Source: a virus
Lineage: Duplodnaviria; Heunggongvirae; Uroviricota; Caudoviricetes
IMG/VR virus record: IMGVR_UViG_2541047806_000008
Length of the DNA stretch: 46,053 nt
Strand: one strand, 5' to 3'
Shown here: positions 2,444-6,290 of the stretch, in pieces
Layout of the letters: each line of letters starts with the position of its first letter
Position numbering within the stretch: the first letter of the stretch is position 1
Made by a program: the position numbers and the translations under genes
Notes under the pieces: generated by a model
Database searches by the model: none
Told to the model about the DNA's origin: nothing
The model's input: the letters and a program-made list of their open reading frames with translations, nothing else

Positions 2444-2725
2444 TCACATCCAGCCACGAAGTTGATGTTCAACAACAACCGCGTATTCATCGAATATTGA
2501 CGATTTTTTTGCATCATTAATGATGCGCACGTTTACAAAATATCCGTCTTCCTTAACACATACCGGTTCGCCATCTTCAGTCAGTTCTCCGGTTTCTTTG
2601 TACACGTTACCTATCACGTCAATAAGAATATCATCCTGCATCAACTCGTCATCATAATAGCCAATGCTCTCCATAAAGGCCGAAAAGTCGGCCCTGTCTG
2701 CAAATTTGAGTGTTAAATCTTTCAT
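2444..2725 (-). CDS. Hypothetical protein in tail-fibre-assembly (tfa) position
   Basis: 93-aa ORF whose start overlaps the stop of the stf C-terminal fragment; does not resemble lambda Tfa as I recall it; function assigned by position only. Confidence 0.35.
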   Translation of the reverse strand: MKDLTLKFADRADFSAFMESIGYYDDELMQDDILIDVIGNVYKETGELTEDGEPVCVKEDGYFVNVRIINDAKKSSIFDEYAVVVEHQLRGWM

Positions 2726-3264
2726 TTAATACTCTCCCCCATTTGCGCATCAGTTAATTCTTTATGCCATATTCTCAGGTTACGAACGTGACCAAACAAG
2801 TGACGTTCTCCTCCAGCAGAAGTTCCCCCAATACGTATTTCATGTGCAGCTCCGGTATTCTTCCATGACGAAGTCTGAACAGGTGACAGGTAACCATTAC
2901 AACAGCAACGAAATTCAGTCGAGCTATTACAGACAAAACCAGCAATCATTTTGCGCCCGGCCTTCACAGATGGACTAAGATATGCAGATCTCACTCCAAA
3001 CTGAACATAAGGTAAAGGTTCTACATCCGGACTTGTAGGCGTCCTGAAAGCCAATACCAGTTGTTCATCATTAGTCGCCACGCCAATAGTGGTTAAAATT
3101 CGTGGGGCCTGATTTGGCGTAGAGTCCCAATTTTTATGTATTTCAACAAGACAGCTTAAAGGGACAGAACTTATGTTATTTCTGGTTGAAAAAATAACCA
3201 TATCACTCGCCCTTGTCGCAGGAACACCTGGTGTGACAATAAATGATGATAAGCAAGAACCTAG
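2722..3264 (-). pseudogene. stf: Side tail fibre (stf) C-terminal fragment, separated from its N-terminal part by IS5; LamG/concanavalin-like distal domain
   Basis: Reading frame is open from the IS5 junction (CTAG at 3261-3264) to the stop at 2722; ends with a pentraxin/LamG-like motif (FGHVRNLRIWHKELTDAQM). Same frame as the N-terminal fragment across the target duplication. Confidence 0.7.
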
Positions 3265-4459
3265 GGAAGGTGCGAACAAGTCCCTGATATGAGATCATGT
3301 TTGTCATCTGGAGCCATGGAACAGGGTTCATCATGAGTCATCAACTTACCTTCGCCGACAGTGAATTCAGCAGTAAGCGCCGTCAGACCAGAAAAGAGAT
3401 TTTCTTGTCCCGCATGGAGCAGATTCTGCCATGGCAAAACATGGTGGAAGTCATCGAGCCGTTTTACCCCAAGGCTGGTAATGGCCGGCGACCTTATCCG
3501 CTGGAAACCATGCTACGCATTCACTGCATGCAGCATTGGTACAACCTGAGCGATGGCGCGATGGAAGATGCTCTGTACGAAATCGCCTCCATGCGTCTGT
3601 TTGCCCGGTTATCCCTGGATAGCGCCTTGCCTGACCGCACCACCATCATGAATTTCCGCCACCTGCTGGAGCAGCATCAACTGGCCCGCCAATTGTTCAA
3701 GACCATCAATCGCTGGCTGGCCGAAGCAGGCGTCATGATGACTCAAGGCACCTTGGTCGATGCCACCATCATTGAGGCACCCAGCTCGACCAAGAACAAA
3801 GAGCAGCAACGCGATCCGGAGATGCATCAGACCAAGAAAGGCAATCAGTGGCACTTTGGCATGAAGGCCCACATTGGTGTCGATGCCAAGAGTGGCCTGA
3901 CCCACAGCCTGGTCACCACCGCGGCCAACGAGCATGACCTCAATCAGCTGGGTAATCTGCTGCATGGAGAGGAGCAATTTGTCTCAGCCGATGCCGGCTA
4001 CCAAGGGGCGCCACAGCGCGAGGAGCTGGCCGAGGTGGATGTGGACTGGCTGATCGCCGAGCGCCCCGGCAAGGTAAGAACCTTGAAACAGCATCCACGC
4101 AAGAACAAAACGGCCATCAACATCGAATCCATGAAAGCCAGCATCCGGGCCAAGGTGGAGCACCCATTTCGCATCATCAAGCGACAGTTCGGCTTCGTGA
4201 AAGCCAGATACAAGGGGTTGCTGAAAAACGATAACCAACTGGCGATGTTATTCACGCTGGCCAACCTGTTTCGGGCGGACCAAATGATACGTCAGTGGGA
4301 GAGATCTCACTAAAAACTGGGGATAACGCCTTAAATGGCGAAGAAACGGTCTAAATAGGCTGATTCAAGGCATTTACGGGAGAAAAAATCGGCTCAAACA
4401 TGAAGAAATGAAATGACTGAGTCAGCCGAGAAGAATTTCCCCGCTTATTCGCACCTTCC
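3265..4459 (+). mobile_element. IS5 insertion sequence (1195 bp) with 16-bp terminal inverted repeats and 4-bp CTAG target-site duplication
   Basis: GGAAGGTGCGAACAAG at 3265-3280 and CTTATTCGCACCTTCC at 4444-4459; CTAG at 3261-3264 and 4460-4463; encodes InsH. Confidence 0.95.
3297..4313 (+). CDS. insH: IS5 transposase InsH
   Basis: 338-aa ORF matching IS5 transposase as recalled ([37 protein letters not shown]...). Confidence 0.95.
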
Positions 4460-6290
4460 CTAGCTCTATTTGAGGGGTGGTTACATCCATAAAACTAGTC
4501 TTATCAAAATTAGCACCCAGTTTGTTTGACATCAGAATGGCGCCGTTAATATATGTAGAGTCGTCTGTTACTTTATAAACAGCCTCTACAGCAACCCACT
4601 CACCGTCACGAACAACATTTTTCACAGCAATATTAGACGCATCTGCTCCAGACGTGAATGTATCTAGTGTGGCGCTATCAATAAAAATGGCAGCTACAGC
4701 AACTGGCGAATCCCCTTTATCAAATCTAGCCGCAAATCTTACATTATCCCCTTTTGCTCTAAAGGATATTGTAACTGCATCATTTTTGACTACCGCTATC
4801 TTATTTGCTGCTGCCCCTGATATAATTCCATATGAGCCAGAACTATCTAAATATTTTTCTGGGGTAAACGTTGCATATTTAAAACCCCTGGAATCGGTTT
4901 TTGTCTCGCTTATCTTCAGGCCTGGATTTTTATTCCACAATTCCGGAGCGTTTGAGTTTGTGAAGTAATTTGTTCTCTGCCCTTCAATTAACAGCCCTTC
5001 TTTTTCAAAACGTGGCTCATTAATTTCTGCAATGGTAAGAGCGCCGGACTTATTGATATAGGTCGCGGAACTCGCGCGGGAAAACGGGACAATTTTGTCG
5101 GATGGTATAGTGACCACATCATCGCGCACTGTTATTTTTTTATATCCCGGGCCAAATCCTGTAATCATATCCATCGAGTCATTAAACGGTATCCACACAT
5201 CAGGCAACGGCTGCAAAACTTGTTTATACGGCTCAGCTGCCTGGCTTGCGTACTCCCTGGCTGCGTCTTCACTTGCTTTTGCAGCCATCTGGCTTGCAGC
5301 GGATGCTTTCGCCGAGTTAGTCGCCGCAGTCTCGCTCGCCTTTGTGTTGGTTTCACTGGTTTTTGCTGCTTTTTGACTGTTGGCTGATGCAGTGGCAGAA
5401 GAAGCCGCCGCACTTGCAGAACCAGCTGCGGCACTCTCGCTTTGGGCTGCTGCATCCTGGCTGTTTTTCGCCGCAGTTTCGCTGGCTTTGGCATTCGTTT
5501 CGCTGGTCTTCGCTGCCGTCTGGCTGGACTTTGCGTTAGTTTCACTCGTCTTCGCAGCTTTCTGGCTGTTAGCCGCAGCAGTTGCTGATCCAGCTGCTGA
5601 AGTCGCAGAACCGGCTGCCGCGCTCTCGCTTTGGGCTGCTGCAACCTGGCTGTTTTTTGCCGCAGTTTCACTGGCTTTGGCATTCGTTTCGCTGGTTTTC
5701 GCTGCCGTCTGGCTGGACTTTGCGTTGGTTTCGCTCGTCTTTGCGGCTGTCTCGCTGTTTTTCGCGTTGGTTTCTGATTTTTTGGCTGCTGTCGCGGAGT
5801 TTGCCGATGCAGTCTTTGAGGTCGCTGCCGCCTGTGCACTATTAGCTGCATTCGTTTCTGAGGTTTTCGCCGCGTTCTTCGATGATGCCGCTGCAGTTTC
5901 GGATTTCTTTGCCGCCGCTGCGCTCTGAGAGGCGGCTTCGGCGTTGCGTGCCGCTTCTTCCACCATTTCCTCAAAACGACGCAATGCTTCCGGCATGACA
6001 TCATCTTCCGTCATGGCACCGAGAAAATCATTCAGCGTACCTGGTCTGGAACCTTCATAGACGGTAATGGTTCCGGCATGTGAAGGCGGAAAACCTTCAA
6101 CAAGCAGGATAACGCTGTACTGGCCATACTCAACATCCATGCTGTAACGCCCGGCTTCATCCGGATTTTCAGAGGCCACCGTGTTCACCAGTACCGTGGT
6201 GCTGTTACGCTTTGCCTTCAGTTGAATAGTGCAGTTCTGTATTGGTTTTCCCGCACCATCTTTCAGCACACCTGAAATCTGTACTGCCAT
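4460..6290 (-). pseudogene. stf: Side tail fibre (stf) N-terminal fragment truncated by IS5
   Basis: N-terminus MAVQISGVLKDGAGKPIQNCTIQLKA... is lambda Stf/StfR-like; ATG at 6288-6290 preceded by GGAG; long Ala/Ser/Thr-rich repeats; the track ORF runs 38 nt into IS5 before stopping at 4422. Confidence 0.8.
5400..5780. repeat. Tandem direct duplication of about 189 bp inside stf
   Basis: Sequence from about 5431 recurs from about 5620 with few mismatches (offset 189 bp, 63 codons, in frame); encodes repeated KTSETNAKSSQTAAKTSETNAKASETAAKNSQ blocks. Confidence 0.7.

Follow-up and report, generated by a model that had tools for sequence, protein, structure and literature searches.

IS5 insertion into stf, the side tail fibre gene of a lambdoid Escherichia coli prophage

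Knockout of prophage genes by insertion sequences (IS) is a textbook event. In Escherichia coli K-12, IS5 inactivates nmpC in DLP12, a prophage residing at the same argU-appY site as the one described here, which corresponds to the IMG/VR record IMGVR_UViG_2541047806_000008 (46,053 nucleotides, nt; this whole stretch is referred to below as the window). DLP12 is a deleted remnant lacking tail genes, whereas the prophage in the window is full length, and IS5 has hit a different target, the side tail fibre gene stf.

Lesions in stf are known from phage lambda. Lambda PaPa carries a stf frameshift and makes no side fibres, yet plates normally, the fibres merely speeding adsorption to OmpC+ cells (PMC12617516). 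As in the window, the lesion falls in the distal half of a gene encoding a homologous N-terminal collar, and the rest of the phage is intact. It is, however, a single-base change and not an IS insertion, and the distal tips are dissimilar, gp37-like and binding OmpC in lambda, apparently a tandem concanavalin-A-like lectin fold in the window. Unlike the lambda Stf system, moreover, the window prophage has only a remnant of tfa. In Gifsy-1 of Salmonella, Stf-mediated binding is needed on smooth, O-antigen-bearing hosts (PMC12312913); the cost of the knockout in the window would thus depend on the host surface.

IS5 prefers as target the sequence CTAG and structurally destabilized DNA (PMC5493358). 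The IS5 insertions described at fucAO-fucPIK, glpFK, bgl and flhDC likewise reside at CTAG sites in destabilized, AT-rich DNA, and their reversion by precise excision is documented; at the fuc locus, precise excision was recovered only under direct selection (PMC5493358). These insertions alter the expression of host operons and are recovered under direct selection, whereas the insertion in the window truncates a silent prophage gene, with no evident selection. Nothing specific on IS5 hitting the tail-fibre genes of prophages was found in a literature search.

The interrupted stf gene

The stf gene of the window is split by IS5 (Table 1). An earlier note on this DNA had described the element as complete, with perfect terminal repeats and a CTAG target duplication. 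Reading of the window, a script and a repeat finder all delimit a complete element of 1195 bp, flanked by two CTAG copies. The repeats fall short of perfect, as 15 of 16 positions agree, with a C/T mismatch at position 13; the arms recognized by the repeat finder (20 nt, CTAG included) are 95% complementary. The same right-end sequence is found in an independent IS5 copy of strain 3359.

The transposase matches NCBIfam NF033581 over the full profile (E 2.4e-109), PF01609 (DDE_Tnp_1; E 5e-35) and PF05598 (DUF772), and the exact protein occurs on at least 1000 contigs. The IS5 DNA is 99.75% identical to the independent copy in strain 3359, and 100% identical to the copy in a scaffold of the E. 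coli HVH 119 lineage. With E. coli IS5 the element shares the length of 1195 bp, the 16-bp repeats GGAAGGTGCGAA(C/T)AAG, the CTAG duplication and a 326-residue DDE transposase; no difference was found, and the element is IS5 itself. It features all the hallmarks of IS5 members, i.e., a size of about 1.2 kb, 16-bp imperfect terminal inverted repeats GGAAGGTGCGAAYAAG, a 4-bp duplication at YTAR (CTAG in most cases) and an intact DDE transposase.

Deletion in silico of positions 3265-4463 yields an open reading frame (ORF) of 2370 nt; this length is divisible by three, the only stop codon is the terminal one, and the product has 789 amino acids (aa), where about 790 had been predicted. The restored gene is identical at 2370 of 2370 nt to the gene of WP_000290535.1 in E. 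coli CFSAN061770. The latter is annotated as "prophage tail fiber N-terminal domain-containing protein" and lies at the same locus, between gpJ and orf93-orf234-orf97-appY. The two fragments belong to one gene, the restored protein matching PHROG 1419 from end to end (positions 1-788 of 793) and being equal to the natural intact allele.

The observation of an IS5-split stf stands, because excision introduces neither a frameshift nor a stop, and the fragments do not derive from different genes. The claim that stf resumes beyond IS5 in the same frame holds in part. Excision does recreate a single ORF, but the halves lie in different absolute frames, because IS5 and the duplication add up to 1199 bp, and 1199 mod 3 = 2. 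Nor is a "restorable, in-frame configuration" special, being generic to every simple insertion with a target-site duplication. The interpretation offered in the earlier note is therefore supported partly: gene identity, domains and restorability were right and the fibre-less phenotype is plausible, while "restorable in frame" was an over-reading.

In its present form the stf reading frame runs into the right end of IS5, from which 13 residues are read (KVRISGEILLG..., tail …IELGKVRISGEILLG). The resulting 622-aa protein is exactly WP_021530166.1, named from E. coli HVH 119.

Among 5426 complete E. coli genomes, the uninterrupted site was detected in 71 with a 604-nt probe spanning the restored junction (100% match), and the exact IS5/stf junction of the window in none. 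At least 999 contigs carry the exact intact protein, compared with 6 for the exact truncated one, and intact alleles exceed interrupted ones by more than 100:1. The interrupted allele was retrieved only when draft and scaffold assemblies were queried for the exact protein, which gave 7 contigs with the truncated gene, representing the E. coli HVH 119 lineage. One of them, the 4.69-Mb scaffold of GCA_000458475.1, is 100% identical to positions 1-12290 of the window over 12,290 bp, IS5 included.

Draft assemblies commonly break or are misjoined at IS copies, and the contigs L005-L007, carrying the truncated gene, stop at IS5. The junction could hence be thought an artefact, either an assembly chimera or unrelated ORF fragments joined by chance. 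Yet the 4.69-Mb scaffold and further assemblies show this very junction, with a clean duplication of 4 bp, the natural intact gene matches the restored stf base for base, and a single PHROG family covers the protein end to end, which rules out two unrelated genes. As judged from these alignments, an artefact and a two-gene origin are already refuted, their likelihood being practically nil. Because the junction recurs in several independent assemblies, the insertion is real and not an assembly error; the genome comparisons further indicate that it is derived, rare and limited to one lineage.

A simple, single transposition of IS5, resulting in the passive knockout of stf, is the best explanation, with a probability of about 0.9, and nothing in the data contradicts it. 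The locus offers nothing new in kind: the IS is IS5, its target gene encodes a catalogued protein, and a RefSeq accession already exists for the truncated product. For annotation purposes, the locus is one IS5-interrupted stf pseudogene, and not a 622-aa "tail fiber" protein followed by an orphan fragment.

No outward promoter-like sites were found at the IS5 ends in a promoter scan of positions 1400-6500 (1 site vs. 5.7 expected). Expression of a 185-aa ORF (2722-3279), which might start at a TTG inside the IS5 left repeat, was considered and dropped after the scan.

Table 1. Features of the stf locus and its surroundings (positions in the window; strand; remarks).
Feature	Position	Strand	Remarks
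stf, whole gene, split by IS5	6290-2722	-	ATG at 6290, GGAG 7 nt upstream
stf 5' part, codons 1-609	4464-6290	-	phage_tail_N collar (aa 1-131), shaft repeats rich in Ala/Ser/Thr, greater part of the first lectin-like domain (predicted)
stf 3' part, codons 609/610-789	2722-3264	-	stop 2722-2724; end of the first lectin-like domain, whole LamG-like distal domain (predicted)
Present ORF, truncated Stf, 622 aa	4422-6290	-	609 Stf residues + 13 IS5 right-end residues, stop 4422-4424
IS5, complete, 1195 bp	3265-4459	+	transposase antiparallel to stf; script, repeat finder, profile search
IS5 left inverted repeat	3265-3280	+	GGAAGGTGCGAACAAG
IS5 right inverted repeat	4444-4459	+	reverse complement GGAAGGTGCGAATAAG; 15/16 vs. 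left repeat
CTAG target-site duplication, IS5 left end	3261-3264	.	nt 1828-1831 of intact stf
CTAG target-site duplication, IS5 right end	4460-4463	.	
IS5 DDE transposase InsH/Ins5A, 326 aa	3333-4313	+	
Tail tip protein J	6351-9848	-	intact, immediately upstream of stf
Terminator-like GC-rich hairpin between J and stf	6311-6330	-	8-bp stem, 6 GC pairs, then T run
orf93	2444-2725	-	PHROG 1361, conserved partner downstream of this stf type
orf234	1730-2434	-	"tail fiber domain" protein, Peptidase_S74 intramolecular-chaperone domain
orf97	1426-1719	-	conserved, last gene of the fibre module, PHROG 1443

The distal tip of Stf

The N-terminus had been described as lambda Stf-like and the C-terminus as LamG-like, and profile searches agree on both. 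Residues 1-131 of the restored protein match PF08400 (E 1.8e-67), and residues 1-94 match the Stf collar chains of Ur-lambda (PDB 9E7M/9MGH, "Tail fiber protein"; E 1.5e-49). Collar and Ala/Ser/Thr-rich repeated shaft are followed by a domain of the GTA head-spike-fibre type (NCBIfam NF048003; residues 434-628, E 4.7e-15) and by a Laminin_G_3 match (PF13385; 31.1 bits vs. a cut-off of 27.6, E 3.2e-7), which is partial, as it spans residues 721-783 and profile positions 88-149 of 151.

The shaft contains an internal direct repeat (5321-5759, minus strand; 250 nt, 189-nt offset, 84% identical). This encodes KTSETNAK…AAK repeats, the number of which varies among alleles (e.g., P0053).

Residues 351-789 (439 aa) were modelled with AlphaFold from a 40-sequence alignment, with a predicted local distance difference test (pLDDT) score of 81.2 and a predicted template modelling (pTM) score of 0.79; pLDDT was only 34.6 in a single-sequence run on the 3' fragment. 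Best Foldseek matches were the tail fibres of Pseudomonas phages Pa193/E217 (E 6e-6), tandem galectins, carbohydrate-binding modules CBM4/6/22/40, neurexin LNS domains and pentraxins, with TM-scores kept modest by the two-domain nature of the model. The model, in agreement with the LamG-like assignment, indicates that the C-terminus of Stf is made up by two tandem concanavalin-A-like sandwiches of the lectin type. IS5 cuts at model residue 258/259, within the strand 250-260, where the first sandwich ends; truncated Stf would thus lack the whole distal domain and feature an incomplete proximal one.

The family that includes the C-terminal module counts at least 2791 proteins. The module is fused also to different N-termini, both in unrelated siphoviruses and in T5-like phages, a sequence pattern as expected of an exchangeable receptor-binding module. 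The prototype of the NF048003 domain, in RcGTA, binds the capsule (PMC10218006), and from this and from the fold we infer a glycan as the putative receptor of the tip. The protein is a lambda-type Stf by its PF08400 anchor and by its position just downstream of J, but not by its tip, as a gp37-like tip with a cognate Tfa was not found.

Predicted consequences of the insertion and recurrence of IS5 in stf

According to the proposed scheme, one IS5 copy transposed into the CTAG at nt 1828 of stf, duplicating it, in the E. coli lineage which includes HVH 119. Stf would be cut after residue 609, in the last strands of the first of the two distal concanavalin-A-like domains, and the product would retain the N-terminal collar and the shaft, without a folded receptor-binding tip. 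This would be a passive loss of function in a gene silent in the lysogen, and the target choice would reflect an AT-rich, horizontally exchanged 3' module of stf which has the only CTAG cluster of the late operon. The stf TGA overlaps the orf93 ATG (ATGA, 2722-2725), and given this overlap orf93, perhaps the rest of the fibre module as well, may be under-translated. Upon induction, the prophage is expected to release particles which infect through J and have no functional side fibres. Fibre-less yet viable virions are plausible by analogy with lambda PaPa, and reasonable to assume because nothing else in the sequence speaks against a functional phage. For strains of the HVH 119 lineage, phage from this prophage are predicted to lack a functional lectin-type side fibre, and may adsorb poorly where the side fibre recognizes a surface glycan. 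Reversion might take place by rare precise excision, or by recombination with an intact allele; lambdoid phages readily swap stf regions with resident prophages (PMC3945230).

Some points weigh against this account. The truncated Stf might still assemble and retain partial function, and Q-antiterminated transcription may cross IS5, which makes polarity on downstream genes uncertain. The fibre-less phenotype is a prediction and presupposes a prophage that can be induced. As to the target, that one of four CTAG sites was hit twice is not compelling statistically as evidence for a hotspot beyond target availability.

The second hit on this CTAG is found in strain 3359 (NZ_CP103739.1, 6001-7500 of the extracted stretch), in a different prophage, located by pinR/ydfK, and IS5 is inserted there in the opposite orientation; among the 5426 complete genomes, strain 3359 is the only one featuring this arrangement. 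Several database proteins ending in …IDSATLGKVRTSP mark a further target, the CTAG at nt 1624 of intact stf (window 4664-4667, 204 nt upstream of the interrupted CTAG), as their reading frame enters the left end of IS5. Two contigs (L009 5580-5651, L010 5610-5680) stop inside the IS5 left end right past this site. Two distinct alleles of stf carry the insertion at nt 1624 (P0094/P0095 and P0097), one with lom upstream, one without. This gene family has thus been hit by IS5 independently at least three to four times, in both orientations, within one and the same segment of 270 bp.

The window contains 21 CTAG sites. None is found over 21 kb (4727-25810) encompassing most late genes, and a cluster of four (nt 1562, 1624, 1793 and 1828 of intact stf) occupies no more than 267 bp in the 3' part of stf (4460-4729), the GC content of which is 42%, vs. 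54% for the 5' part. By site counts, the cluster is the sole preferred IS5 target of the late operon. The simplest explanation of the recurrent hits is that the cluster supplies the target in the AT-rich 3' part, the rarity of CTAG probably funnelling IS5 into horizontally acquired, AT-rich modules.

The same recurrence, in both orientations, may also be taken as the trace of a reversible switch similar to phase variation, in which insertion of IS5 at the stf CTAG sites and its precise excision toggle the side fibres, and hence adsorption or host range. Experiments have recovered precise IS5 excision at fuc, and IS-based on/off switches operate in other bacteria (PMC5493358). Interrupted alleles are, however, rare by contig counts (6 vs. 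at least 999) and in complete genomes alike (1 of 5426 in the opposite orientation, 0 of 5426 in that of the window), and the CTAG cluster alone accounts for the recurrence. Empty and filled sites were seen together in no single assembly, the empty site being known from other strains only. In addition, stf is unexpressed in the lysogen, so that no selection acts there, and excision across 4-bp repeats is, in our estimate, expected to be very rare. A reversible switch, of which no evidence was found at this locus, is possible but highly unlikely. The odds are equally slim that the CTAG cluster serves as a landing pad for IS5, excision or recombination with co-resident prophage copies toggling the side fibres. 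If this were true, lambdoid phage populations would carry a heritable, yet reversible polymorphism in adsorption and host range.

Knockouts which recur in stf might also have been selected, if loss of the side fibres is advantageous, for instance because adsorption is slower in dense or biofilm-like habitats, or because adsorption to debris or lysogens is avoided. High adsorption rates conferred by the lambda side fibres are harmful in a biofilm-like setting (PMC2762979), and lambda grows better in soft agar after Stf inactivation, a result cited in PMC3945230. Intact alleles are, however, far more common than interrupted ones, and each interrupted allele is limited to few assemblies. Selection on adsorption requires lytic cycles, whereas the alleles were seen in prophages, and Stf can be necessary in smooth hosts, as in Gifsy-1 (PMC12312913). 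Selected inactivation, while possible, is thus very unlikely. A passive knockout by a single IS5 transposition remains the preferred reading.

Neighbouring genes and prophage background

The fibre module (1426-2725, minus strand) has an unusual composition, stf being followed by orf93, orf234, orf97 and a tfa remnant, annotated only as a fragment downstream. The orf234 product, a free-standing protein of 234 aa, shares homology with the C-terminus found in very large tail fibres (PHROG 3299, positions 1147-1384). The lom gene, found between J and stf in related prophages, including that of strain 3359, is absent in the window prophage.

A lambdoid prophage of full length, residing at the E. 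coli argU/DLP12 site, occupies the window from appY (1-750) to intD (44890-46053). The tRNA-Arg repeat of the far attachment site lies outside the window, between envY and ompT. Compared to CFSAN061770, the window is 100% identical at 1-3264 and 31604-46053, and 99.79% identical at 4459-32000 (58 substitutions). Among 46 annotated coding sequences compared with this strain, stf alone is disrupted; substitutions in the portal and protease genes leave these open, and the remaining sequences are identical. The 58 substitutions include changes in protease (C/Nu3) and portal, at about 19600-22520; were all of them to fall within this interval, a patch acquired by recombination would be suggested, the rest of the prophage being identical.

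The cultured plaque-forming phages PhiR70_1, Kati, PhiR26_1 and mEp332 match 92-98% of the late region at about 96% identity. PhiR70_1 (PV340577.1), a plaque-forming phage of the DLP12 type, has an IS4 transposase gene directly after the major capsid gene (16936-18001). Phages of this group can therefore carry an IS and remain viable.

A xis-like ORF with a helix-turn-helix (HTH) motif (44633-45034, plus strand) overlaps the start of int; it matches part of the Pfam HTH_17 profile, and is called partial by RefSeq in the reference prophage. A xis defect hindering excision was considered and rejected, as an identical 123-aa ORF is found in the cultured phages ev243, 2G7b and PhiR30_1; on this comparison, the pseudogene call appears doubtful.

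In the nin region, a 500-aa DUF4041/T5orf172 protein (34003-35505, plus strand) matches over its full length the anti-phage defence protein PD-Lambda-1 (E 1.9e-198). Next to the S24 repressor, at the position of rexAB, a gene pair (39482-40884, plus strand) encodes a DUF6932 protein of 157 aa and a protein of 310 aa, matching components A and B of the candidate defence system PDC-M63 (E 7e-43 and 4e-42). The prophage porin gene (nmpC/ompD-like, 360 aa; 28497-29579, plus strand) is intact in the window.

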